A stretch of DNA of 33,479 nucleotides from a virus (lineage: Duplodnaviria > Heunggongvirae > Uroviricota > Caudoviricetes), in IMG/VR virus record IMGVR_UViG_2627854066_000005, positions 1 through 33,479 of that record; one strand, given 5' to 3'. This document shows positions 3,387 through 33,479 of the stretch, piece after piece (position 1 is the first letter of the stretch; the number at the start of each line of letters is the position of its first letter). Under the pieces are notes generated by a model. That model searched no databases. It had not been told where the DNA came from and saw only the letters and a program-made list of their open reading frames with translations. Made by a program: the position numbers and the translations under genes.

Positions 3387-3662
3387 ATGAGTATCCGTAT
3401 CGAGATAAATCATCAGTATGTAGTTACAAGCGATCGCTACCAGTTCATTTTGCAGGAAAAGAAAGTGGCGACTGCTGGAAAAAATGAAGGTAGCGAATGG
3501 CTTGATACTGTCGGGTATTACCCGACGATTCAAAAACTGATTTCTGGTCTGGTGCTACATGACCTTTTAAATGGCGGTGCTGATAGTTTTGCGGCGTTGG
3601 GTGAGCAGGTCGAGCAGTTGGGACTGCAATGTCAGACCGCGTTTTGTGCTGATGGCCGTTGA
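3387..3662 (+). CDS. Small hypothetical phage protein (P2 orf80-83 region)
   Basis: 91-aa ORF with strong RBS (agaaggag) 8 nt upstream of the ATG. Confidence 0.45.
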   Translation: MSIRIEINHQYVVTSDRYQFILQEKKVATAGKNEGSEWLDTVGYYPTIQKLISGLVLHDLLNGGADSFAALGEQVEQLGLQCQTAFCADGR

Positions 3663-5865
3663 GACTCGGGGGCGTATTGCCCCCTCGCTAGCCCTGCCAA
3701 TATCTAAGCGCACCGGCGATACTTTCGTTGGTGCTTATCCCTGGAATGCTCCCCGCGCTGCCATTGGCCGTGACAGACCCCTTACACGTGCCGAATTCCG
3801 TCAGGTGCAAGGTGTTTTATACCGGATTGACCGCCTGCCTTTCTTTCTTAAGACGTTGTTTACTTCCCGTTATAACTTCATTCGCCGCACAAAGAGCCCG
3901 CTCGGGGCGCTCTATTTCCTGAAAAACACCTTTGAGCGGAAGCTGTTGCCGCGTCTTGAGCGCGTTAACGAGCTGTGCGGGATGAATGAATCTGCGTCGA
4001 TTGGTTTCTTGTCTGAGCATGACGAATATGCGCGCTTGCCTGATATGAATGACAAAGAGCTGAAAAAATTTGCGGCCATAATTGCCGCGCAGCTCTGGCG
4101 TAAATACGAGGAACTCAGCGACGAATGGGCTGAGGCATTCGGCGGTAAAGAGACCCTTTTCACCGATGAGGCGCAGGTGCACATATATGGTCAGGTGGCT
4201 GGTGTTGCACGCGCGTTCAACTTAACCCCGCTCTACTGGAAAAAATACCGTAAGGGTCAGATGACGATCCGCATGGCGTTTTCCGCTATTTCCCGTCTGA
4301 TAAAAGATGATTGGTGGGTTAACCAGCTCAAGGCGCAGCGTATGCGCTGGCGTGAGGCGCTGCTTATCGCTGCCGGTGAAGTCAACAAAGACCGTTCACC
4401 TTACGCCAGCAAAATGGCGATCCGCGAGGTTCACTCGCGCCGGCTGGCTAATCTCGAATACCTGAAATCCTGTGAGCTGGAAAACAAAGTTACCGGCGAA
4501 CGTATCGACCTCATCAGTAAAGTCATGGGGAGTATTTCAAACCCTGAAATACGCCGTATGGAGCTGATGAATACCATTGCCGGAATTGAACGCTATGCGG
4601 CCAGCGTTGGTGATGTGGGAATGTTTATCACGCTGACCACGCCGTCGAAGTATCACCCGACCCGACAGGTCGGCAAAGGTGACAGCAAAACGGTGCAGCT
4701 CAATCACGGCTGGAACGAAACCGCATTCACCCCTAAAAACGGCCAGCGCTATCTGTGCCGAATCTGGAGCCTGATGCGTACCGCTTTCAAAGATAACGAT
4801 TTGGAAGTGTATGGGATGCGCGTTGTCGAGCCGCACCACGACGGCACGCCACACTGGCATATGATGCTTTTTTGCAAACTCGGTCAGCGTAAAGCTATCA
4901 ACGAAATTATGCGTCGTTATGCCCTCAAAGAGGACGGACACGAAAAGGGCGCGGCAAAACAGCGCTTTGAGTCGCGTCACCTTAATCAGGGGGGCGCGGC
5001 GGGTTATATCGCCAAATACATTGCCAAAAATATCGACGGCTACGCGCTTGACGGTCAGCTCGATCACGATACCGGCAAACCTCTGAAAGATACGGCCGCA
5101 GCCGTAACCGCATGGGCGTCTACATGGCGTATCCCTCAGTTTAAACCGATTGGCCTCCCGACAATGGGCGCTTACCGCGAACTGCGTAAGCTGCCGCGCG
5201 GGGTGAGTATCGCCAGCGAGTTTGACGACCGTGTCGAGGCCGTCCGGGCTGCTGCAGATGAGGGGGAATTTGACCTGTACATCAGCGCGCAGGGTGGGGC
5301 AAACATGCCGCGTGATGCTCAGGTGGTCAGGGTCGCCCGTAAGGTGACGGATGAGGTAAACGAATACGAGGAGGATATCGAGAAAGTGGTCGGTATTTAT
5401 GCCCCTCATCTTGGGGCGAGCCGCGTACATGTAACCCGTACAGCGGAATGGCGCATAGTTCCAAAGGTTTTGGCCGTTGAGCCTTTGACCTTAAAAAGCG
5501 GCGCTGCCGCGCCTCGGAGTCCTGTCAATAACTGTGGAAAGCTCACCGACGGTGATACTCCAGTTATGACACCCACACCGTCTGAGCAAGCCGCAGCGGT
5601 GTTAAATCTGATTGAGCGCGGAGTTATCGGATGGAATGAGCCAGACGTCATGAAGGCGCTTAACGGTGCGTTAAGAGCTGGCATCCCTCGCAAAAATCGC
5701 CAGCAAAGAAGCAATGCGCTACTCAAAACGAGTGAGCAAGCTCCATCAGCCAGGATGACAAAACCAGAAAGGGATCGCGTGGCGAAAATTCGTTTCGATT
5801 TGGCTCAGGAGGGCATTACCCCGGAACGGTGGGAGCTCGAAGCGCTGGTGCGTGGGCAACGGTGA
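3652..5865 (+). CDS. A: Rolling-circle replication initiator A (HUH-type endonuclease)
   Basis: About 737-764 aa. Contains HUH-type motif VEPHHDGTPHWHMMLF and paired active-site Tyr motif GYIAKYIAK. Start uncertain: 3652 (MAVETRG) or 3571, the latter giving 764 aa versus 761 for P2 A. Confidence 0.85.
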   Translation: MAVETRGRIAPSLALPISKRTGDTFVGAYPWNAPRAAIGRDRPLTRAEFRQVQGVLYRIDRLPFFLKTLFTSRYNFIRRTKSPLGALYFLKNTFERKLLPRLERVNELCGMNESASIGFLSEHDEYARLPDMNDKELKKFAAIIAAQLWRKYEELSDEWAEAFGGKETLFTDEAQVHIYGQVAGVARAFNLTPLYWKKYRKGQMTIRMAFSAISRLIKDDWWVNQLKAQRMRWREALLIAAGEVNKDRSPYASKMAIREVHSRRLANLEYLKSCELENKVTGERIDLISKVMGSISNPEIRRMELMNTIAGIERYAASVGDVGMFITLTTPSKYHPTRQVGKGDSKTVQLNHGWNETAFTPKNGQRYLCRIWSLMRTAFKDNDLEVYGMRVVEPHHDGTPHWHMMLFCKLGQRKAINEIMRRYALKEDGHEKGAAKQRFESRHLNQGGAAGYIAKYIAKNIDGYALDGQLDHDTGKPLKDTAAAVTAWASTWRIPQFKPIGLPTMGAYRELRKLPRGVSIASEFDDRVEAVRAAADEGEFDLYISAQGGANMPRDAQVVRVARKVTDEVNEYEEDIEKVVGIYAPHLGASRVHVTRTAEWRIVPKVLAVEPLTLKSGAAAPRSPVNNCGKLTDGDTPVMTPTPSEQAAAVLNLIERGVIGWNEPDVMKALNGALRAGIPRKNRQQRSNALLKTSEQAPSARMTKPERDRVAKIRFDLAQEGITPERWELEALVRGQR

Positions 5866-5941
5866 TTTATGGCGATAAAAAATTCAAATACGCGGCTGCT
5901 GATGAGTGGCCGGGATTCTCAATTCAAGAGGAGTGGAAATA

Positions 5942-6406
5942 ATGAGCAAAATCCATGAGTTAAAAATTGCACCTGAGCATTTTAACGCTGTGATATCTCA
6001 GGAAAAACGTGCTGAATTTCGTCTCAATAACCGCGATTATTCTAGCGGTGATATTCTCGGGTTGCATGAATGGGAACCGGTAAACGGATATACCGGGAAA
6101 CGTGTATCAGTGAGGGTGACATACGTTACTGATTTATCTGAATGGGCGGAAAATTATGTGATGCTGAGTTTTCAGTTAATGATGCCAGATGTCAAGTGCG
6201 GTATGTCCCTAATGAACTGGAAAGAGTTAAGCGAGAAGGGGCTTGTTTTCAGAATTAATCACGAAATTCTACACCCGTTAGGGCTGGCTATTGGATTTGA
6301 AACACTTAACGGCGTTTCGGGTGGGGCTTATGTCGCTTGTGATGGTGTCTGGCAATATTCCGACAAGCTGGTCGCAGATGCTAAAAAAAATGGGTGGTTA
6401 AAATGA
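5942..6406 (+). CDS. Hypothetical protein with ASCH/DUF3850-like N-terminal region (cargo, tin/old position)
   Basis: ATG 5942 with RBS aagaggag. N-terminus ELKIAPEHFNAVISQEKRAEFRLNNRDYSSGDILGLHEWEP resembles DUF3850/ASCH (PUA-like) proteins, from memory only. About 42% GC versus about 55% backbone. Confidence 0.4.
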   Translation: MSKIHELKIAPEHFNAVISQEKRAEFRLNNRDYSSGDILGLHEWEPVNGYTGKRVSVRVTYVTDLSEWAENYVMLSFQLMMPDVKCGMSLMNWKELSEKGLVFRINHEILHPLGLAIGFETLNGVSGGAYVACDGVWQYSDKLVADAKKNGWLK

Positions 6407-6627
6407 GTCATATGCGAATGATGCCAGTGCCGCCCGTACATTCAACGCAAAACATTAAGCTGATGGCCGTCGTGCATCGCCTGCAACAAATTATGATTAA
6501 CGAGAATCTGACCCCTGACGAACTGGTCGGGTGTGCCGGTGTCGTCCGGGATAATCACCGCAAATACAGCGATATCAGCAATCCGAAAATTGAGGCGTTT
6601 CGGCCATCAAATATGGCGAAGCCATAG
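6394..6627 (+). CDS. Small hypothetical protein
   Basis: 77-aa ORF overlapping the upstream stop; weak RBS, no motif recognised. Confidence 0.25.
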   Translation: MVKMSHMRMMPVPPVHSTQNIKLMAVVHRLQQIMINENLTPDELVGCAGVVRDNHRKYSDISNPKIEAFRPSNMAKP

Positions 6628-6909
6628 CAAACGCCGCCGGTGCTGAAACTTGTTTTCAGTGCCAGCGGGGTTGACCAACGAGCCCCGCGAGGCGTTAGCC
6701 TGTCCCGTAGAGATCACCCCCAACCGGAACGATTAAAGCAGGTTTTATTATGCCATTTTCCCACAATTTCCCGGTTTTTTAGCCGTGCATGCAACAGGTG
6801 CATTGTTTTGCATGCGTTGGGGATGCCCGTTCTGGCCGTGCGCCGCCAGAGCTAGCGCGGATCCAGAGTGGTCATGCAACTGCATTAAAACCGACCCATA
6901 AAGCGGGCA

Positions 6910-6928
6910 GGCGAGGCGGGGATAGCAT
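6910..6928. other. Putative cos site (19-nt cohesive end region)
   Basis: GGCGAGGCGGGGATAGCAT differs at 2 positions from the P2 cohesive end GGCGAGGCGGGGAAAGCAC as I recall it. Lies in a GC-rich noncoding stretch between the A side and the Q/P packaging genes, as in P2. Confidence 0.5.
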
Positions 6929-7017
6929 TGCGCGCTGAGGGGTTTTAAATTTCATTTTTTTTAGTATTATCAAAAAGAATAATTCAGAATTATCTCAAAA
7001 AAGGCAAGGGGCACAAT

Positions 7018-8349
7018 ATGGTGATTAATGAAGTTAGACGGATAGGTAGTGGCGGTTTTGGTAATGTTGATTTAGTGCAAGATGTCCTTAGCGGAAAGCA
7101 ATTCGCTAGGAAAACATTTTCTATAAATCAAGCTCAACCGCTGCCTCCTGATTTGGCAGAGAATGTAAAAAAAAGATTTATAAGAGAGGCAAACGTACAG
7201 TATAGACTTACGCATAAAAATATTGTACCTGTCCTTTTTAAAGATCTAAATAGTAACCCTCCATCTTTCCTTATGCCAGTAGCAGCATCTAGCCTTGATA
7301 AAGATATTGCGCAAAGTAGAAACTTGAATGGATTATTTTTAAGAGCAATAATGGATATTTTGTCTGGACTCGAAGAATTGCACACGTTGCAAATTTATCA
7401 TCGTGATCTCAAACCACAAAATGTGCTTAGATTTGATTCAAGTGAAGGTCCATATTACGCTATTAGCGACTTTGGCTTGATGTCAGTAAAAGATACTCAA
7501 ATTTCAGCACTAACCCATACAGGTATGAAAATGGGTTCTGATTACTACACCGCACCTGAAATTGTTTCAGATCTTAGAAAAGCTAGTATTGCTTCAGATA
7601 TTTATTCTTTGGGGTGTATACTGCATGACTTTGTAGGCACGGATGAAAGAATTCCTTGTGGTGAAATTAATAATGATTCGAGCGCATATGCGCATATTTT
7701 ACGGGTTTGTACTCGTAGAGATCCTTCAAGAAGATTTCCAAGTGTTGCAGCATTAAGGGATGCAATTCTTAGTATTGATCCTTCTACAGTAATACATCTC
7801 TCTGCTGAGGTTGGAACATATACTACAGCATTAGATAGTGACGCCGGAATTAATGTTGAAACATGGAGGGAAATAATCAATTTCGTAGAGGATAATATTG
7901 GACAAGAAAACTCCAAGGTGATATTTCAGCGTCTAACTTTAAACAGGATTAATGAGATAATCGCTCATGATACCACGCTAGCTTGTCGTCTTGGTGAAGC
8001 ATATGGTCGTTGGGTTGCGGATGGAGTATTTTCATTCGAACAGTGTGATGGGATTTGCACTCGTCTCGAACAATTTTTACAACTTCACGATTTGAACTGT
8101 AAAGCCGAAATTATTATAGCTATGCTTCTTATGGGAACGTCGCATAATCGTTGGTATGTCGAGAGACGCTTCATGAGCGTGGCAGGGCACGACATGACTC
8201 CAGAACTGGCTAAAAGGCTTGCTTTGGAAATGAGCATACTTGAGGGTAGAATGTGTGCAGCGGTGAGTCATCTCCAAAGATCAATTGGTGCCACACCTGA
8301 TATGCTTCATCCTGAACTTTTCGCAATGATACAAAGAGTATGCCATTGA
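7018..8349 (+). CDS. Hanks-type (eukaryotic-like) Ser/Thr protein kinase with about 170-aa C-terminal domain of unknown function
   Basis: Gly-rich loop IGSGGFGNV (7042-7068); Lys in FARKTF; catalytic loop HRDLKPQN (HRD at 7399-7407); DFG (7468-7476); YTAPE. RBS aaggcaagggg upstream; AT-rich promoter-like region 6950-7017. About 35-38% GC. Confidence 0.8.
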   Translation: MVINEVRRIGSGGFGNVDLVQDVLSGKQFARKTFSINQAQPLPPDLAENVKKRFIREANVQYRLTHKNIVPVLFKDLNSNPPSFLMPVAASSLDKDIAQSRNLNGLFLRAIMDILSGLEELHTLQIYHRDLKPQNVLRFDSSEGPYYAISDFGLMSVKDTQISALTHTGMKMGSDYYTAPEIVSDLRKASIASDIYSLGCILHDFVGTDERIPCGEINNDSSAYAHILRVCTRRDPSRRFPSVAALRDAILSIDPSTVIHLSAEVGTYTTALDSDAGINVETWREIINFVEDNIGQENSKVIFQRLTLNRINEIIAHDTTLACRLGEAYGRWVADGVFSFEQCDGICTRLEQFLQLHDLNCKAEIIIAMLLMGTSHNRWYVERRFMSVAGHDMTPELAKRLALEMSILEGRMCAAVSHLQRSIGATPDMLHPELFAMIQRVCH

Positions 8350-9050
8350 TTAATAAATTTGCTTACACATCTCCGGGACCTAGAAGCCACAACCAAGACT
8401 CTATCTTGGTTGAGATTTTACCCAGCGCTGATTTGTTATGTGGCGTTGCGGATGGTGTCGGCGGGAATTTGGGGGGAGAAACAGCCTCTCAATTAGCACT
8501 GGACATTATTGCTGCGGCCATGCGTTCGGATAGTAGCATCTCTCTTCTCGAAGCCATAACCCGAGCTGATGAAGCGATCAAAGATGCTGCTCAGAAAGAT
8601 GGAAAATTGGCTGGAATGGCAAGTACTGTGACTGTAACAAAGCTTATCGGGAATAAATTGATAGGAGCCAATTGTGGAGATTCTCGGACTTATCTATTAA
8701 GAGGAAGTGGCGTCAAACAACTTTCCTATGATCACAGTGAAGTAGCTCGTCTACTACGTGAAGGTAAGCTGACGAAAGAGACTGCAGTTGATTACCCTCG
8801 TAAGAACATTCTTGATAGTGCCCTTGGTGCACACAAGCCTCTACAAGTCCATGAATTTGAATGTAATTTACAGATAGGTGATAGAATAGCTTTGCTATCT
8901 GACGGGGTTTCGTCAGTTGTGAGCAAAAAAGATTTCCGAGATCTTTCAGTGAAATATAATTCGTTAAATGAGTATGGTGCTAGTGTAATAGAGCTTGTTG
9001 AGAGTAGAGAGACTAGGGATAATTATTCATTGATTATTTTTGAAATTTAG
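8340..9050 (+). CDS. PP2C-family Ser/Thr protein phosphatase
   Basis: PP2C motifs GVADGVGG (8451-8465), CGDSRTYLL (GDSR at 8676-8687), LLSDGVS. ATG overlaps the kinase 3' end by 10 nt, suggesting translational coupling. Confidence 0.75.
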   Translation: MPLINKFAYTSPGPRSHNQDSILVEILPSADLLCGVADGVGGNLGGETASQLALDIIAAAMRSDSSISLLEAITRADEAIKDAAQKDGKLAGMASTVTVTKLIGNKLIGANCGDSRTYLLRGSGVKQLSYDHSEVARLLREGKLTKETAVDYPRKNILDSALGAHKPLQVHEFECNLQIGDRIALLSDGVSSVVSKKDFRDLSVKYNSLNEYGASVIELVESRETRDNYSLIIFEI

Positions 9051-9061
9051 TTTTGTAATAT

Positions 9062-9095
9062 AGGTGCGTTATTTAAAATGACGCACCTTTTCTCA
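9062..9095 (+). terminator. Intrinsic terminator after the kinase-phosphatase operon
   Basis: Stem aggtgcgt / acgcacct (8 bp) with 11-nt loop, followed by a T-rich tract. Lies between the convergent phosphatase and Q genes. Confidence 0.5.
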
Positions 9096-9102
9096 TTTTG
9101 TT

Positions 9103-10110
9103 TTAAATAGAATATTTTTCAAATTGTATTACATCTTCTTGAAGCCAGTCGTTAATCTCTTTGAAACGCTCCTGCAATGGCGTCAGCTCGTTACGCACAA
9201 ACACCCGCGCCACCTTCTCAACGTCACCCATTGAGCCGATGTTTTCCGGCTTGCCGCCCATCAGCTGAAACGGCACGCGGTGCGCATCGAGCAGGTCAGC
9301 GGCACTGACCTTTTTGATGTTGAAAAAATCATCCTTCGTGGCGACTTCACTCAATGGCACAATCTTGATCCCGTCTGGCTTTCCGTTGGGCGCGTAGAAA
9401 AACAGGTTCTTAAAATTCCCCAGCCCTTTTGAGTCGCGCATCGCGTTACGGAGCGATTCAACGTCGGTGCTACTCTGTGCCGCGTCGGTGACATACATGA
9501 TATACCCCGCGTGCGCCCCGTTCTGGTAATACTTACGACGAAATAACGTGGCGGATTCATTCAGCCAGGCTGAATTGAGTGCGCTCAGGTATTCCGGCAT
9601 CCCGTAAAGTTCCTGATTGATATCGGGCTCAAGCAGATGACACACCGAGCCGGGCGCGAACGGGTGCGGCTGGGTGTAGCTCGATACGTACCAGTAAACG
9701 CCATCCTCGACACCCCGGCGGGTGTATTTGGCCGGGGAGGTTTCCAGTTTTAATAGCTGGCCGGTGACGCTCATGCGCTTCTCAAGATAGCCGTTGGCAA
9801 AGACCAGATAATCGAGCACAAGGCGGCTGAAATCCTGACGCGACAGCAACGGGTGCGGAATGTAGGTGCTCGCCAGAATGTTACGCTTCACGTAAATCGG
9901 CGAGCTGTGGTGAACGGCGGCGCGCAGGCTTTTTGCCAGTCCCGAGAAATTGACCGGCGGCTCGTACCATTTCCCGTTATTGATGCACTCGACATAGTCG
10001 AGGATGTCGCGGCGATCCAGAACGGGGGACGGCTCACCAAAGGTAAACGCCTCCATTTTTTGCGGTGCGCTGGCGGTCATTGTGGCGGGTTTCTTCTGTC
10101 GTTTTTTCAT
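9103..10110 (-). CDS. Q: Portal (capsid portal protein Q)
   Basis: Start MKKRQKK at 10110 lies immediately after the P stop (TAAGATG coupling); an alternative in-frame start is at 10170. P2 gene order Q-P on the minus strand next to cos. Confidence 0.85.
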   Translation of the reverse strand: MKKRQKKPATMTASAPQKMEAFTFGEPSPVLDRRDILDYVECINNGKWYEPPVNFSGLAKSLRAAVHHSSPIYVKRNILASTYIPHPLLSRQDFSRLVLDYLVFANGYLEKRMSVTGQLLKLETSPAKYTRRGVEDGVYWYVSSYTQPHPFAPGSVCHLLEPDINQELYGMPEYLSALNSAWLNESATLFRRKYYQNGAHAGYIMYVTDAAQSSTDVESLRNAMRDSKGLGNFKNLFFYAPNGKPDGIKIVPLSEVATKDDFFNIKKVSAADLLDAHRVPFQLMGGKPENIGSMGDVEKVARVFVRNELTPLQERFKEINDWLQEDVIQFEKYSI

Positions 10111-10111
10111 C

Positions 10112-11881
10112 TTAGTTAATATCCAGAATTGAGGTTGATTGCATGCCGCTACCGGCGGAAAGTGGCTCATTTAACAGGGCGTGCATGGTCGCCCACGCAA
10201 TATCCGCGTGGCTGGCCTCTTCGCTGCGGCTGGCCTCATAGGTGGCACTGCGCCCGCTGCTGGTCATGGTTTTACGAATCGCCATAAACGACTGCGTGAT
10301 GTCGGTTGCACCGGCGTCATATTCCAGACACCCACGTCGGATGGTGTCTTTCGCTTTCAGCACCATCGCGGTTTTCATTTCCGGCGTGTAGCGAATGGCG
10401 CGGGCTGCCGGAAAGAAGGAGCGCACGAGCTGGTAAACCCCCTGGCCGATGCCGGTTGCATCGATGCCGATATACTCGACGCAATATTTCTCTGTCAGCT
10501 CGCGGATAGCCTCGGCCTGCGTTGCAAAATCCATCCCTTTCCACTGGTGACGCTCAAGGATGCGGAACTTGCCACCGGCAACCAGCGGCGGAGCCAGTAC
10601 CACACAGCCAGCACTGTCGCCGGTGTGTGACGGGTCATAGCCAATCCAGACCGGGCGCCAGTTAAACGGACGGTCAGAGAACGGTGCAAAGTCTTCCCAT
10701 TCTTCCATCGCATCGACCATGCAGCGCTGCAGCTCCTCGAACGGAAATACAGACGCTTTATCGTCGACGAACTCGCACATGAAGAGGTTGCGAAAGTCGT
10801 CGGCGCTGTTTTCCTGTTTCAGCTGATCCAGATTAAACAGCGTACATCCTCCGGCGAGGGCGTCCTCGATGGTGACAATCTGCCGCCACTGTCCGTCCGG
10901 GCATAACACCCCACCGGCGAGCGCCTTGTGACTGATATCGATGTCGACGCGCTCACTCGCGCTGATGCGTCCCCGGTTAAACAGCTCACCTGACCAGAAC
11001 GGATACGCACCGTGTGCCAGCGTTGAGGGTGTTGAAAAGTAGGTGGTGCGCAGGTGGGACTGTGACGCCATCCCCGACGCCACTTTGCGCAGCCTCTGAA
11101 AGTTGGGGATCCAGAAGATTTCATCGACATACAGGTCGCCGTTGTGGCTCTGCGCGGTGTTGGAGTTTGTCCCGAGGAAAATCAGCTCTGCGCCGTTATT
11201 GCCGATGACAATCGGGTCGCCTGACAGGTCGACGTCGACCATGCGTGCAAAGGCGATGATGTACTTTCGGAACACGTAAGCCTGCGTCTTACTGGCGGAT
11301 AAAAATATCTGGTTTTGCCCGGTTTTGAGGGCGCGCAGCAATGACTCGCGGGCAAAGTAAAATGTCGCGCCAATCTGGCGTGATTTGAGGATGTGGCGAA
11401 TACGGTGCGCGATACCGGCCTTGTGCCAGTTGAGCTGATACTCAAAGGACTGGTCGAGGAAAATCTCTTCCAGCTTTTCGATGGCCTCATCGCTGAAAAA
11501 ATTCCGTTTCGGCTTACGGCGATCGCCCTTATTACGGCTGGCAATACTGGGGTTTAAATCCACCTCGTTTCCGGTCTGGCCGTAGCGGTTGATGCGCGCG
11601 AATCGCTCCATCTGGCGCGACAAAAAATCAGCGACCTTGAAGTCATGCGGCGTCAGGTCAGGCTTTGCATACAGCTGAATCAGGCGCGCCTCGAGCGTCG
11701 TTTCCACGCGGTTAAGCGGGGCGGTTTCCTCCCACCCGTCGCGCTGTTTCCAGCTCTGCACGGTCGGGCGCTTGACCTGCAGCGTGTCGGCGATTTGTGG
11801 CACGGAAAATCCCTGCCAGAACAACAGACGCGCCTGTCGTCGCGGGTCATGTAAAAGGGAGAGGTCAGTCGAAATGGTCAT
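10112..11881 (-). CDS. P: Terminase large (ATPase) subunit P
   Basis: 589 aa from MTISTDL..., versus 590 for P2 P; synteny with Q and divergent from O. Confidence 0.85.
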   Translation of the reverse strand: MTISTDLSLLHDPRRQARLLFWQGFSVPQIADTLQVKRPTVQSWKQRDGWEETAPLNRVETTLEARLIQLYAKPDLTPHDFKVADFLSRQMERFARINRYGQTGNEVDLNPSIASRNKGDRRKPKRNFFSDEAIEKLEEIFLDQSFEYQLNWHKAGIAHRIRHILKSRQIGATFYFARESLLRALKTGQNQIFLSASKTQAYVFRKYIIAFARMVDVDLSGDPIVIGNNGAELIFLGTNSNTAQSHNGDLYVDEIFWIPNFQRLRKVASGMASQSHLRTTYFSTPSTLAHGAYPFWSGELFNRGRISASERVDIDISHKALAGGVLCPDGQWRQIVTIEDALAGGCTLFNLDQLKQENSADDFRNLFMCEFVDDKASVFPFEELQRCMVDAMEEWEDFAPFSDRPFNWRPVWIGYDPSHTGDSAGCVVLAPPLVAGGKFRILERHQWKGMDFATQAEAIRELTEKYCVEYIGIDATGIGQGVYQLVRSFFPAARAIRYTPEMKTAMVLKAKDTIRRGCLEYDAGATDITQSFMAIRKTMTSSGRSATYEASRSEEASHADIAWATMHALLNEPLSAGSGMQSTSILDIN

Positions 11882-17856: not shown

Positions 17857-18906
17857 ATGTCTAACGATGATAAAACATTGAATTTATTCCCCATAGATTA
17901 TCCATTTGAGACTTTATGTTCTAGGATGAAGTCCAATCCCATCAAACTAAAACTGAATCCAGACTTTCAAAGAAAGTACAAATGGGATCAGGACGGATGG
18001 CTGCGATCTTCAAAATTCATTGAATCTTGTTTAATGCGTATTCCTCTTCCATCTTGTTACTTTGCAGAAGATGATAGCGGCAATCATATTGTAATTGATG
18101 GTGTTCAGCGATTAACCACAATACAGAAATTTTTTGATGACGAGTTCGCTTTGGAGGGAATGACTACATTTAAAGAGCTTGAAGGGAAAAAGTTTTCTGA
18201 ATTAGGATCTCTACGTTCAGAGTTAGAGTCGACAACAATAAGATGCATTGTTCTAAGAAAAGAAAATCCCAAAAAATTAATAAGAGAGATATTTTCTAGA
18301 CTCAATCAGGGGGCAGTTAAACTTTCTGACCAAGAAATAAGACATGCGTTATATCCGGGAGGGTTTGATGAATTATTAGAAGAGTTAGGTAATATTGATG
18401 CCATTAAAAATTTTGGTTTGGCGGAAACAACTACAGTAAAAAGAGATAGTCGTGAGCCAGACGAACAAGTTTTGCGTTTTTTTGCATTTTATGAAGATAA
18501 CTTTTTTGATTACTTTGATAGCTCCTTGAAAGAATTCTTGGATGATCATATGGAAAAATTTTCAGACTTAAAAGATGATGAACTGAATATTATGAGGGAG
18601 AGATTCAAAACATCATTATCTAAGTGTGAAAAAATATTTGGTGAAGATGTATTTACAAACCCTACAGTTAGGAGAAAACGTAAAGGGTTAGTTCATTATG
18701 ACATTTTAATGCCTACAATTGGCAAGTTAAATGATGATATTGTAAATGAAAAGTCCGAACAAATACGGAATGCTTGGTTTACTCTTTGTTCAAGTGCTGA
18801 GTTCAAAAAAACTTTATCAGGTGGGCTACAGAATAAGAGTTCGGTGATGAAGCGTAGGGCTAGTTGGGTGGCACTTCTTAAGGAAGTTATTGATGGAAAA
18901 TACTGA
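17857..18906 (+). CDS. DUF262 (ParB-like / GmrSD N-terminal-like) domain protein
   Basis: 349 aa; N-terminal region with FQRKYKW and IDGVQRL (the DGQQR-type motif of DUF262); helical C-terminal region, no HNH/DUF1524 seen. About 33% GC; inserted between S and V, which are adjacent in P2. Confidence 0.65.
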   Translation: MSNDDKTLNLFPIDYPFETLCSRMKSNPIKLKLNPDFQRKYKWDQDGWLRSSKFIESCLMRIPLPSCYFAEDDSGNHIVIDGVQRLTTIQKFFDDEFALEGMTTFKELEGKKFSELGSLRSELESTTIRCIVLRKENPKKLIREIFSRLNQGAVKLSDQEIRHALYPGGFDELLEELGNIDAIKNFGLAETTTVKRDSREPDEQVLRFFAFYEDNFFDYFDSSLKEFLDDHMEKFSDLKDDELNIMRERFKTSLSKCEKIFGEDVFTNPTVRRKRKGLVHYDILMPTIGKLNDDIVNEKSEQIRNAWFTLCSSAEFKKTLSGGLQNKSSVMKRRASWVALLKEVIDGKY

Positions 18907-19471
18907 ATACTATGATGGATATCGTTCATTATTTTTATCCTTAAAAGAAATTATTAAGGAGACGGAGCAACAGGCTATCCTTGAGGAAAATGAATTCTTC
19001 AATAAGAACATTAATTTTTTTGTTAAATCGTATCTTATTACACTCTGCACTTATTTAGAGTCGTATTTGACTGAGGTTGCAACATGGCACTGCGATACCA
19101 TCAATCGCAGGCTTAAAGCAGCCTGCTTGCCACACAATTTTTTGCTTTGGCGAGTCAAAAAAGATGTTAAAGATAAGGAGTTGAAATATATAGATGCTGA
19201 TTTAAAGGTTGAGAAAAGTGAGGTGTCGGATAGCCTGTCTGGTAATCCTTACAAGACGATTAAGGCATTTTCTTATTTGGGTGTTAATCTTTTGAATTCG
19301 GCGGAATTTAATGCGAATAAGGATGTTGTGAATGCAGTGGTTGTAAAGAGAAATAACATTATTCATCATAACGACAATGCAAATGATATTAGTCTCACTG
19401 ACGTAAGTGGTTATGTAGATCTGTTTGTATCCTATATGGCCGCGATAGATAATATGGTTTGTGGAAAATAA
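18890..19471 (+). CDS. Hypothetical partner protein, possible HEPN-like (R-x4-H) motif
   Basis: 193 aa; overlaps the upstream gene by 17 nt (same operon); KRNNIIHHND fits the R-x4-H pattern of HEPN RNases, tentative. AT-rich. Confidence 0.45.
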   Translation: MMENTEYYDGYRSLFLSLKEIIKETEQQAILEENEFFNKNINFFVKSYLITLCTYLESYLTEVATWHCDTINRRLKAACLPHNFLLWRVKKDVKDKELKYIDADLKVEKSEVSDSLSGNPYKTIKAFSYLGVNLLNSAEFNANKDVVNAVVVKRNNIIHHNDNANDISLTDVSGYVDLFVSYMAAIDNMVCGK

Positions 19472-29263: not shown

Positions 29264-29728
29264 ATGTTAATGGTGCTGGGCTTTTTTGTGTTTGAACGGC
29301 GCACCCTGCCGCATCAGTCAATGCAGTATTCGAAGGACTACCGGTGGGTGTCAAATGACCGTATTGGAAAACCACCTGCTTATCAGTATCTCGGGGAGGG
29401 GGAGACCTCGCGCACCCTGTCAGGCACGCTTTACCCTGAAATCACTGGCGGGCGTCTGTCACTGATGGCCATCGAACTGATGGCCGACGAGGGGCGCGCA
29501 TGGCCGCTGATTGACGGAACCGGTATGATCCACGGGATGTATGTCATCGATAAAGTGACTCACAACCACACCGAGTTATTCAGCGACGGTGCGGCTAAAA
29601 AAATCGAGTTTAGCCTGTCGCTTAAGCGGGTGGATGAATCCCTCGCGGCCATCTACGGCGACCTGAAAACGCAGGCTGACAATCTGGTCACGTCTGCCGG
29701 TAACTGGCTCGGGGGGATGGCGGGATGA
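29264..29728 (+). CDS. U: Tail protein U
   Basis: 154 aa versus 159 for P2 U; synteny. Confidence 0.8.
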   Translation: MLMVLGFFVFERRTLPHQSMQYSKDYRWVSNDRIGKPPAYQYLGEGETSRTLSGTLYPEITGGRLSLMAIELMADEGRAWPLIDGTGMIHGMYVIDKVTHNHTELFSDGAAKKIEFSLSLKRVDESLAAIYGDLKTQADNLVTSAGNWLGGMAG

Positions 29729-30888
29729 TAACGGGAATGAACATTCAGACCGGGGCGCGCATTGCCCCTGATTTTATGCTCACGCTCGATGGCGCAGATA
29801 TCTCACAGAATTTCAGCAACCGGCTTATCGGGCTGACCATGACCGACAATCGCGGATTCGAGGCTGATCAGCTTGATATCGAGCTTGATGATTCTGACGG
29901 GCTGGTTGAGCTGCCGCCACGCGGGGCATCGCTGACGCTGTGGCTGGGCTGGCAGGGCTCGGCGCTGATAAACAAAGGGAGTTTCACGGTTGACGAAATC
30001 GAGCACCGGGGCGCGCCTGACAGGCTGACCCTCCGGGGGCGCAGCGCGGATTTTCGCGGGACGCTGAACTCCAGGCGCGAACAGTCATGGCACGACACCA
30101 CGCTCGGGGTGATTGTTGAGGCTATCGCGCAGCGTAACAAACTGACGGCCAGCGTGGCTGATACCCTGAAATCTGTTGCTGTGCCGCATATCGACCAGTC
30201 TCAGGAATCCGACGCCGCGTTTTTGTCCCGACTGGCGGATCGTAACGGGGCAGCGGTTTCGGTCAAAGCCGGGAAATTGTTATTCCTGAAAGCCGGTAGC
30301 GCGATGACGGCCAGTGGCAAGGCCATCCCGCAAATGACCGTCGAACGCGGTGACGGCGACCGCCATCAGTTCGCCATTGCAGACCGTGAGGCTTACACCG
30401 GCGTAACGGCGAAATGGCTGCACACCAGAGACCCGAAACTGCAAAAGCAAAAGGTGAAGCTCAAACGCAAACCCAAAGAGCAGCACCTGCGTGCGCTGCA
30501 GCACCCGAAGGCCGTCAAAACATCGGCAAAGGCTAAAAAGAAAAAGGAGCAGGAAGCGCGGGAAGGTGAGTATATGGCTGGTGAGTCCGACAATGTTCTG
30601 GAACTCACGACCATCTACGCGACAAAGGCGCAGGCCATGCGCGCAGCTCAGGCAAAGTGGGACAGGATACAACGTGGGGTGGCGGAGTTTTCGATTACGC
30701 TCGCCACTGGCCGCGCTGATTTATTTCCTGAAACGCCGGTCGCAGTGAAAGGCTTTAAGCGCGTTATAGACGAACAGGCGTGGATAATCAGCCGTGTGGT
30801 GCACAGCTTTAATGGGAGCGGCTTCACGACGGGCTTAGAGCTTGAGGTTAAGGTTTCTGATGTGGAGTATGAAAGCGAGGAAACTTAA
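29725..30888 (+). CDS. D: Tail protein D
   Basis: 387 aa, same length as P2 D; start overlaps the U stop. Confidence 0.85.
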   Translation: MITGMNIQTGARIAPDFMLTLDGADISQNFSNRLIGLTMTDNRGFEADQLDIELDDSDGLVELPPRGASLTLWLGWQGSALINKGSFTVDEIEHRGAPDRLTLRGRSADFRGTLNSRREQSWHDTTLGVIVEAIAQRNKLTASVADTLKSVAVPHIDQSQESDAAFLSRLADRNGAAVSVKAGKLLFLKAGSAMTASGKAIPQMTVERGDGDRHQFAIADREAYTGVTAKWLHTRDPKLQKQKVKLKRKPKEQHLRALQHPKAVKTSAKAKKKKEQEAREGEYMAGESDNVLELTTIYATKAQAMRAAQAKWDRIQRGVAEFSITLATGRADLFPETPVAVKGFKRVIDEQAWIISRVVHSFNGSGFTTGLELEVKVSDVEYESEET

Positions 30889-31636: not shown

Positions 31637-33479
31637 GTGCGCCGGGCATGGCGCGTAGCGCCGTGACTGGCGCTGTTCTTCAACTGTGGTGGCTGAAGAA
31701 CGACTAAGAGGTGAAAGTCCTCCACACACCCGGTGAGGGGAAGTGTTAGCGGAAGGCAAGGGTGTTCATCGCGAGGTGAAATCTGAAGGAAGCCGGATGC
31801 AAAATGCTGGCCTGACGAACAGGAAGCGGTTAAGGCGGCGCAGCGGGGTAAGGTGGCATACATCACCAAAGCCCGATACTCACACGGAACGCTGTAACGT
31901 AGAGCCGACAGGCATAAGCAGGAAAGTCGCGCGAATTACCCCGGGAGAACTGCCGTCCTGCCAGTGTGCTACCGGCGTCGTAAGGTGCCGGGATGGGGCG
32001 GCAGAAGTCAGCCGACGCCGTAGTAGTGCTGCAAAACCGGCAGCATGAAGGGCCGAACATGATTAACCGTGATTAGGACATCCGAACCCGATGATGATTA
32101 ATGAAGCACAAGCGCAGGCAACTGCGGCCAGCGGCAGAGGAGACGGACGGTATCCGTCAGGGCTGCATGATGGCGCTGAAATCAGCACGGCGGCGGGTGG
32201 GCAAACGAAAGCGGAAGTGCCGCTGACGATGGAAGCGGTGATAACGAGAGAAAACCTGATGCTGGCTTATCAGCGCGTGGTGGAAAACAAAGGCGCGGCG
32301 GGGGTGGATAACCTCAGCGTGGCGGAGTTGAAACCGTGGCTGAAGAAGAACTGGCGCAGTGTCAGGCAGGCATTGATTGACGGAAACTACCAGCCGCGGG
32401 CAATACGCCGGATGGATATCCCGAAGCCGGATGGCGGCGTGAGAACCTTAGGCATCCCGACGGTGGTGGACAGGCTTATCCAGCAGGCGATTGCGCAGCA
32501 GTTAAGCGCCATCGTGGACAAAAGCTTCTCAGACTCCAGCTACGGCTTCCGGCCGGGGCGCAACGCATGGCAGGCGGTGCAACAGGCACAGCGTTACATA
32601 CGGGGCGGCAAACGGTGGGTGGTGGATATGGATCTGGAGAAGTTCATTGACCGGGTGGATCACAGACTCCTGATGACGCGTCTGGCCAGAACGATAAAGG
32701 ACAGGCGGGTGCTGAGACTGATACGCCGCTACCTGAAAGCGGAAATAGTCCGGGACGGGCAAAGGGAGAAACGGCAGGAGGGCATGCCGCAGGGCGGCCC
32801 GCTGTCGCCGTTACTGTCGAACATCCTGCTGGATGAACTGGATAAAGAACTGGAGCGTCGTTGACACAGCTTCTGCCGCTACGCAGACGACTGCAACATC
32901 AACGTAAGCAGCCGGAAAGCGGGCGACCATCTGCTGAAGAACATCAGGGCGTTCGTGGAGAACAAAATGAAACTGAAGGTGAATGAGAAGAAGAGCGCGG
33001 TGGCGCGCCCGTGGGAGCGGAAGTTCCTCGGGTACAGTGTGACATGGCACAAACAGGCGAAGCTGAAAATAGCCCTGACGAGCGTGAACAGGCTGAAGGA
33101 GAAAGTCCGCAGTCTGACCACGGGAAACCGGAGCAAATCAGTGAAAGCGACAATCAATGCCCTGACGCCAGTGCTGCGTGGATGGATAAGCTACTTCAGG
33201 CTGACGGAAGTCAGAGGAGTGCAGGAAGAGCTGGACGGCTGGATCAAACGGAAACTGCGGTGCCTGTTGTGGCGGCAGTGGAAGAGGCCGGGAACCCGGA
33301 CGAAGAACCTGCAAAGAGCGGGGCTGAGTAAGGACAGGGCGATGATCTCAGCGTACAACAACCACGGGCCATGGTGGAACTCAGGGTCAAGCCATATGAA
33401 TCAGGCGATAAAGAATGCGTGGTTCAGCAGGCAGGGTCTGATATCACTGCTGGAACAGCAGAGGCAGTTCCAGTGTTAA
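31637..33479 (+). mobile_element. Group II intron, 5' portion (domains I-IV with intron-encoded protein); 3' end beyond the window
   Basis: 5' GTGCG at 31637; about 590 nt of structured GC-rich RNA-like sequence before the RT ORF; the ORF has the YADD motif and the maturase domain-X motif LRGWISYF. Insertion just after a terminator is typical of class C (IIC) introns. Confidence 0.7.
32229..33479 (+). pseudogene. Group II intron reverse transcriptase/maturase, interrupted by in-frame TGA at 32862-32864
   Basis: ORFs 32091-32864 and 32955-33479 are in the same frame. Reading through the TGA gives ...LDKELERR*HSFCRYADDCNI..., continuous through the RT YADD motif (32880-32891). Likely start MEAVITRENLMLAYQRV at 32229. 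Natural stop TAA at 33477-33479. Confidence 0.7.

Follow-up and report, generated by a model that had tools for sequence, protein, structure and literature searches.

The two-gene orf91 module behind the replication gene A of a P2-like phage and its possible part in lytic growth

Introduction

In P2-like phages the interval between gpA and gpQ is a diversity hotspot with defence genes (Rousset et al. 2022, PMC9122126). This raises the question of what two small open reading frames (ORFs), ORF1 and ORF2, do directly behind gene A in the 33,479-nucleotide virus record IMGVR_UViG_2627854066_000005, the whole of which is called the window below. The original prediction, made from the sequence alone, had placed them in the position of the P2 genes tin and old and had seen in them candidate exclusion or anti-defence cargo. 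We lean, with moderate confidence, to another answer, namely that the pair may be an accessory of the early replication operon, one that binds nucleic acid, can be dispensed with and acts in lytic growth. The two translationally coupled genes would form the distal end of that operon (cox-B-A) and would be transcribed together with gene A upon infection or induction, not from the repressed prophage; the products would then accompany replication, with nucleic acid of the phage or the host, or nucleotide metabolism, as their target.

Results and discussion

The locus and its relation to P2 orf91

The relevant features of the window are as follows (nt, nucleotides; aa, amino acids; E, expectation value).

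3571-5865, plus strand: gene A, rolling-circle replication endonuclease (Pfam Phage_GPA, E 3.7e-108; RefSeq "replication endonuclease"), the upstream anchor of the module
5866-5941, plus strand: spacer of 76 nt, with the Shine-Dalgarno sequence GAGGAG 8 nt ahead of the ORF1 ATG
5942-6406, plus strand: ORF1, 154 aa (RefSeq WP_029392163.1, "DUF3850 domain-containing protein"; phrog_1812 over the full length)
5951-6172, plus strand: DUF3850/ASCH domain of ORF1 (predicted PUA-like beta-barrel), aa 4-77, containing K-x-x-E-x-R
6212-6388, plus strand: DUF7415 domain of ORF1 (Pfam match aa 91-131; folded unit in the model about aa 93-149)
6403-6627, plus strand: ORF2, 74 aa, its ATG overlapping the ORF1 stop (ATGA); phrog_11386
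6628-6935, no strand: conserved flank ending with the cos site (cohesive-end 19 nt at 6910-6928)
6936-9142, plus strand: variable insert with a Ser/Thr kinase and a PP2C phosphatase gene, replaced by 209 nt in the related locus L006
9106-10113, minus strand: portal gene Q, the downstream anchor of the hotspot (RefSeq "phage portal protein"; tblastn synteny across the compared loci)

The RefSeq annotation was taken from the P2-like prophage of E. coli KV7 (NZ_LT795502.1), to which the window is 100% identical over 5866-7017 and 99.9% identical over 4900-6627. A mechanical list of reading frames gives 5906-6406 and 6394-6627. Position 5906 is merely the first in-frame GTG, and ORF1 likely starts at the ATG at 5942, 8 nt past GAGGAG, while the 77-aa frame opened by the GTG at 6394 most likely starts at the ATG at 6403, in ATGA overlap with the ORF1 stop; RefSeq lists ORF2 as a hypothetical protein with its start at 6412. 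The 154-aa frame and the overlapping 77-aa frame of the original prediction do exist, with these likely starts, and they lie, as it stated, directly after gene A and before cos. Its remark on GC content also holds, since ORF1 (0.428) and ORF2 (0.498) are below gene A (0.544) and the flank from ORF2 to cos (0.568); the value for ORF1 is near that of the remaining early region (0.451) and above that of the island downstream of cos (0.388).

In reference P2 (NC_001895) gene A is followed by Orf91 on the same strand, by tin and old on the other strand and by cosR, in this order; tin and old have their own promoter, and their transcript starts near cos. ORF1 aligns over its full length with orf91 of phage L-413C at 54.5% identity, and its counterparts in L-413C, P2-type, Yersinia and Wphi phages all stand directly behind A, with a 4-nt overlap between A and orf91 in L-413C and P2. 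In the P2 lineage the equivalent of the spacer is the coding 3' end of A, the stop of which overlaps the orf91 start. Judged by alignment and position, ORF1 is the full-length ortholog of P2 Orf91; since it is that ortholog and lies directly after A, upstream of tin and old, the pair is not in the tin/old position that had been proposed but in the orf91 slot.

The reference gene itself (NP_046796.1, 109 aa; L082 3317-3646, corresponding to P2 30316-30645) is not complete. Over nt 1-224 it matches a full-length orf91 at 98% and over nt 224-250 the beginning of ORF2, and it is therefore the remnant of a deletion, in which the intervening 232 nt encoding DUF7415 were lost and the remainder runs into the tin/old cassette. 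P2 Orf91 has the same DUF3850 domain, position and strand as ORF1, whereas DUF7415 is missing from it and the first codons of ORF2 are joined on. In Wphi the two domains of ORF1 are annotated separately as orf91 and gp92, where gp92 is the DUF7415 half. Compared with P2, L-413C and Wphi, the window carries the intact two-domain gene together with ORF2 and a 76-nt spacer behind A. On these comparisons ORF1-ORF2 is the intact form of the P2 orf91 module, composed of families that are already annotated but uncharacterised, and the reference annotation can be corrected: P2 Orf91 derives from a two-domain gene with a small partner. No function assigned to orf91, DUF3850 or DUF7415 was found in the literature, and DUF7415 was mentioned in no paper found. 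A megablast search of the region against the phage collection gave no match; the relatives came from searches at the protein level alone.

Constant genes beside a variable junction

In order to judge whether the pair behaves as exchangeable cargo, 72 IMG/VR loci encoding a relative of ORF1 were compared. Gene A stands immediately upstream of the ORF1 homolog, at fixed spacing, in all of them (72/72), and nearly all have ORF2 beginning on the ORF1 stop. Between ORF2 and the portal gene, on the other hand, the loci differ: 39 unrelated classes of sequence were distinguished, 501-5,254 nt long and including near-empty sites. The variation comes in on either side of cos, in the interval from ORF2 to cos and in that from cos to Q; some loci (L025, L053) are filled at both places. 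Where it is present, the ORF1-ORF2 pair sits on the constant side of the variable junction; replacement of the pair by unrelated genes at the same junctions was not found, the junctions lying after ORF2 and after cos.

The cos site of the window was recognised by the 19-mer GGCGAGGCGGGGATAGCAT at 6910-6928, which is identical to P2 cosR at 17 of its 19 positions and has conserved bases upstream as well. Homology to the relatives persists to 6935 and then ends. The empty-site relative L006 is colinear with the window over 5800-6935 and again over 9143-10198, and holds 209 nt in place of the 2,208 nt of the window. Because L006 is colinear on both sides and near-empty between them, the swapped-in insert of the window is 6936-9142. 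The variable slot that had been suspected stands to the extent that the pair lies within the gpA-gpQ hotspot and is optional; the pair itself is constant, and the exchanged segment is the insert behind it. Since the variable junctions lie after ORF2 and on both sides of cos, the pair belongs to the early gene set of the phage. Hotspot surveys that count all gpA-gpQ content would nevertheless list it among candidate defence genes.

The presence of the module was surveyed in 5,426 complete E. coli genomes, of which 1,684 have the 3' end of a P2-lineage A. In 275 of the latter (16%) A continues into orf91, and the window's own lineage of the pair was found in 51 genomes; in an evenly spaced sample of the E. 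coli genome matches the similarity mostly ends at the end of A. Twelve loci without the pair were examined (a 94.5%-identical relative with a DUF3696 insert carries the pair and was excluded for that reason), and all 12 have unrelated cargo directly behind A, for example cytolethal distending toxin, restriction-modification genes, retron-type reverse transcriptase, AAA ATPases, an exonuclease with a HIRAN protein, and a helicase. In the sequenced phages a full-length ORF1 occurs in 27 records and a P2-clade gpA in 78. The two genes also occur apart, ORF1 without ORF2 in L-413C and in four of the compared loci (L019-L022), while PSP3 and other Salmonella phages, e.g. SEN1 and SW9, have ORF2 with no ORF1 next to it. 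The description that fits the pair best is that of an accessory module of the backbone, ancestral and often deleted.

The separate occurrence bears on the idea of a toxin-antitoxin or addiction pair that stabilises the prophage. Two small, overlapping and translationally coupled genes in a region of genetic flux would suit such a function, whereas genes that are found one without the other would not; furthermore reference P2 and Wphi tolerate a truncated or split ORF1, and neither ORF matches toxin or antitoxin families in Pfam, NCBIfam or PADLOC. We regard an addiction function as scarcely credible, the least probable of all the explanations considered, and a type II toxin-antitoxin pair was rejected because the genes occur apart and match no family of this kind.

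The same comparisons can be set against the view of the pair as lysogenic-conversion cargo, that is, an equivalent of tin and old which is expressed by the prophage to exclude other phages. P2 tin/old and the other gpA-gpQ cargo (PMC9122126) lie in the same A-to-Q interval and show the same polymorphism of presence; moreover the GC content of ORF1 is below that of A, and most E. coli P2-like prophages are devoid of the pair. Unlike that cargo, ORF1-ORF2 is always A-proximal, on the A strand and beside many different cargoes: it remains constant next to 39 kinds of downstream interval, it is kept even at near-empty sites, and it occupies the position of orf91. It shares the orientation of the lytic gene A and is coupled with it, a promoter of its own was not detected, both of its domains are abundant in strictly virulent phages, and a related prophage lineage has it as a pseudogene. 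PADLOC gave no match for ORF2 and only a chance-level one (0.054) for ORF1. The ORFs are not conserved at this position in most P2-like phages, as the survey made plain, and yet the cargo reading fails because of the position and behaviour of the pair. Prophage exclusion is accordingly improbable.

Selection and decay

The ratio of non-synonymous to synonymous substitution rates (dN/dS), taken at moderate divergence, was 0.14-0.19 for ORF1, 0.10-0.17 for ORF2 and 0.09-0.16 for gene A, and the changes in both ORFs fall mainly at third codon positions. ORF1 and ORF2 are real genes under purifying selection. A decaying backbone remnant without function could be imagined from the frequent losses, frameshifts and truncations, but the selection is strong (0.10-0.19) and comparable to that on the essential gene A, nearly all 72 loci have intact reading frames, and a 35-aa core of ORF2 hardly varies from genus to genus; this explanation is very improbable. 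It was also considered whether ORF2 could be a cis-acting, cos-related DNA element instead of a gene, and this was rejected since substitutions at third codon positions dominate, dN/dS is about 0.1 and the frames are intact.

Frameshift variants of ORF1 recur (window about 6320-6329, at a G-run; L078 4577-5040; L023). One of them is marked as a pseudogene by RefSeq, and in some the N-terminal part of ORF1 reads into the ORF2 frame. These variants could be due to decay, to homopolymer sequencing error or to something else.

Domains of ORF1 and conservation of ORF2

The N-terminus of ORF1 had been described as resembling ASCH/DUF3850, and profile search bore this out: aa 4-77 match Pfam DUF3850 (E 2.8e-19, 69.5 bits, cut-off 22.9) and, more weakly, ASCH (E 2.8e-4, 22.0 bits, cut-off 21.2). 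A second domain, which the original prediction had missed, is DUF7415 (PF24187) at aa 91-131 (E 1.8e-9, 38.1 bits, gathering threshold 27). The whole protein is covered by phrog_1812 (E 6.6e-49), and aa 1-86 match phrog_986, "RNA-binding protein". The only sequence relative in the PDB is 3iuw, an 83-residue ASCH-type structural-genomics entry from E. faecalis labelled "activating signal cointegrator" (E 4.6e-8). Structure prediction gave a PUA-like beta-barrel for the DUF3850 domain, in agreement with the fold suggested earlier.

The cleft of this domain contains the motif EKRAEFR, in which K23, E26 and R28 form an ASCH-type K-x-x-E-x-R; the basic/acidic cleft motif of ASCH proteins is of the G-x-K-x-x-E-x-R type. 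In the relatives of ORF1 the K and the R are retained, and the E is substituted in two clusters. The K-x-x-E-x-R is common to ORF1 and the ASCH superfamily (PDB 3iuw, E. coli YqfB, Zymomonas ASCH, human TRIP4). In contrast to these proteins, ORF1 has the domain in its minimal form of about 75 aa and carries DUF7415 in addition. At the motif position where ORF1 has Glu, YqfB presumably has Thr. Neither the N4-acetylcytidine amidohydrolase activity of the YqfB type, which goes with a catalytic Lys/Thr/Glu arrangement, nor the RNase activity of ZmASCH can be inferred for ORF1.

DUF7415 has the conserved core W..LS..GL...IN.E[IV]LHP.GLA...G.S....DG.W.Y, the central residues of which (N-x-E-[IV]-L-H-P-x-G-L-A ... 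G-x-S ... D-G) are invariant or nearly so in our alignments A2-A4. In the first full-length model of ORF1 this part was built as strands at low confidence (predicted local distance difference test, pLDDT, 61-78); a domain-only model from 58 family members reached a pLDDT of 88.5 and supersedes the C-terminal domain of the former. When alignments of DUF7415 and of ORF2 were searched as sequence profiles against the PDB, only matches with E above 1 were returned. DUF7415 is a small, phage-specific domain without a solved structural relative. In most members of the family the domain makes up a protein of 60-110 aa by itself or is combined with other partners, such as MazG-like deoxynucleoside triphosphate pyrophosphohydrolase, Rv2179c-like exoribonuclease and thymidylate kinase; the fusion with DUF3850 found in ORF1 is a minority form, seen in 2 of the 71 longer (at least 125 aa) DUF7415 representatives that were scanned.

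The NHEILH of the DUF7415 core resembles the zincin motif HExxH, which prompted the idea that ORF1 might be a metalloprotease, or a DNA-protein-crosslink protease acting on the covalent gpA-DNA complex. The idea was rejected because the wider DUF7415 family does not keep the first His and a zincin-like fold was not found; the apparent HExxH of this copy is not a feature of the family.

DUF3850 has also been reported in prophages as part of ParB-CTPase-DUF3850 fusion proteins, the ParB-DUF3850/ParA "partition" systems (PMC12704722), and partition-like cargo was described in a quarter of P2 loci (PMC9122126). ORF1 shares with these fusions the DUF3850 domain and the prophage setting; unlike them it has no ParB-like domain and no parA neighbour. 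Genes of the ParB-DUF3850/ParA type were found next to A in none of 8 sampled E. coli P2 loci that lack ORF1.

ORF2 belongs to PHROG 11386 (phrog_11386, E 5e-30); it has no match among the Pfam, NCBIfam and PADLOC models, and NCBIfam holds a model for neither ORF1 nor ORF2. Its relatives make up 116 protein clusters, from Enterobacteriaceae throughout, every one "hypothetical". The conserved core, KLMA[IV]VHRLQQIM[IV]NENLTPDELVGCA.[IV]VRDN, is the 35-residue segment that is almost invariant in E. coli, Salmonella, Enterobacter, Lelliottia, Leclercia, Citrobacter and Edwardsiella (alignment A5), and the copy of the window is without the C-terminal PPPRRP tail usual in the family. Homologs stand directly behind orf91 in the P2-type, Yersinia and Wphi phages, where they are frequently unannotated; PSP3 gp37 is another homolog. 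As far as these sequence searches reach, ORF2 is known from enterobacterial P2-like phages only.

Linkage to replicase genes and probable expression

The pair lies on the same strand as gene A. Across 5500-7100 neither a promoter above chance nor a plus-strand terminator was found; a scan with the promoter consensus gave one weak match (9/12), the -10 element of which ends on the ORF1 ATG, and this is within chance expectation. Gene A of P2 belongs to the early operon, which is shut off by the C repressor in lysogens. Since the pair is co-oriented with A, and A is early and repressed in lysogens, expression in the lytic phase only would be expected.

The link to replicase genes recurs in other arrangements. 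In the 186-like phage Midge the beginning of gpA is shared with a gene that consists of DUF3850 only. In a Lelliottia P2-like prophage the replicase is of the Toprim primase type; its stop is overlapped by the gene of a DUF7415 protein whose N-terminal part is different, and a Dam methylase gene comes next. On another contig DUF7415, Dam methylase and gpA form a single string of overlapping genes. Taken together, the two domains of ORF1 match 825 phage records, mostly of virulent phages, which include T7-like, T1-like and T4-like phages, Klebsiella siphoviruses, and Enterococcus and Listeria phages; in the T4-like group DUF7415 lies near nrdD. Virulent phages have no prophage state and no use for lysogenic conversion. 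The gene layout, the replicase linkage and the phyletic spread of the domains point to a replication-linked role in the lytic cycle.

As a separate observation, DUF7415 genes adjoin Dam-type (MethyltransfD12) methylases and replicase genes at L093/L094 3293-7257 and L096 52-3592, and one such P2-like element has a Toprim primase-type replicase in place of gpA.

Several points weigh against an accessory of the replication operon as the function of ORF1-ORF2. Nucleic-acid binding by the subfamily of ORF1 is suggested by its likeness to PUA-like ASCH domains, and the timing of expression is deduced from the layout of the genes, where the 76-nt spacer could hold an internal promoter. Some relatives have a frameshift in ORF1, and reference P2 has a truncated form of it; from these lineages it follows that ORF1-ORF2 is dispensable and that any contribution to replication is non-essential. 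The pair is missing, as a whole, from about 84% of the E. coli P2-lineage prophages. Finally, in the comparison with the locus L005 the synonymous divergence is 0.08 for ORF1 but 0.39 for A; there is no strict co-divergence, and by this measure the module recombines independently of A, as accessory genes do.

The main rival to the replication accessory is counter-defence in the lytic phase, in which ORF1, expressed early and with or without ORF2, would disarm a host immune system; possible means are the binding or processing of a nucleic-acid or nucleotide signal and the masking of a modified base. The pair lies at the edge of a known anti-phage hotspot, its polymorphism of presence and its mosaic recombination are typical of accessory genes in an arms race, both domains of ORF1 are frequent in virulent phages, and DUF7415 is found fused to a MazG-like pyrophosphohydrolase and a 3'-5' exoribonuclease and next to Dam methylases. 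No similarity to any characterised anti-defence protein was found, however, and with 39 different neighbouring intervals there is no tie to a particular defence system; the linkage that is conserved is to replicase genes and not to a host system. Counter-defence is therefore an unlikely explanation, if one that deserves attention ahead of the other rivals. Somewhat more doubtful still is a broader view, in which DUF7415, as a structurally new domain with swappable partner domains, would mark a widespread class of early phage proteins tied physically or functionally to the replicase, and ORF1-ORF2 would shield or adjust rolling-circle replication in the face of a host factor or immune system. 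If this were true, a replication-linked counter-defence module would lie at the edge of a well-studied defence hotspot.

The preferred reading of the pair, as an accessory of the early replication operon, has consequences of its own. If the linkage to the replicase is functional, the module would represent an unstudied accessory step in phage DNA replication or in the early takeover of the host, and such a step would be common to temperate P2-like phages and many virulent phages.

Other features of the window

The insert 6936-9142 (GC 0.39) is unique among the 72 compared loci. It encodes a Ser/Thr kinase (7018-8349, 443 aa, Pkinase E 1e-28), for which the best PADLOC models are mad6 and PD-T4-6, and a PP2C phosphatase (8340-9050, 236 aa, Stp1/IreP-like, E 6.5e-49), the gene of which overlaps that of the kinase. 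At the corresponding position the 94.5%-identical relative mentioned above has a DUF3696 protein and a hypothetical gene. The kinase and the phosphatase are a candidate defence pair and a better target for a test of defence function than ORF1-ORF2.

A second island of low GC content (about 0.34) lies at 17857-19471 inside the late region; its genes are those of a GmrSD_N/DUF262 protein (349 aa) and, behind it, a HEPN_RiboL-PSP protein (193 aa). It is probably the second variable locus of P2-like phages, with a defence-like pair.

Just downstream of the homolog of the tail gene D (29725-30888), the segment 31765-33479 has group II intron RNA domains (Rfam RF02001, 135.9 bits; RF01998, 70.5 bits) and, behind them, a reverse-transcriptase ORF (32091-32864, RVT_1 E 9.5e-29).

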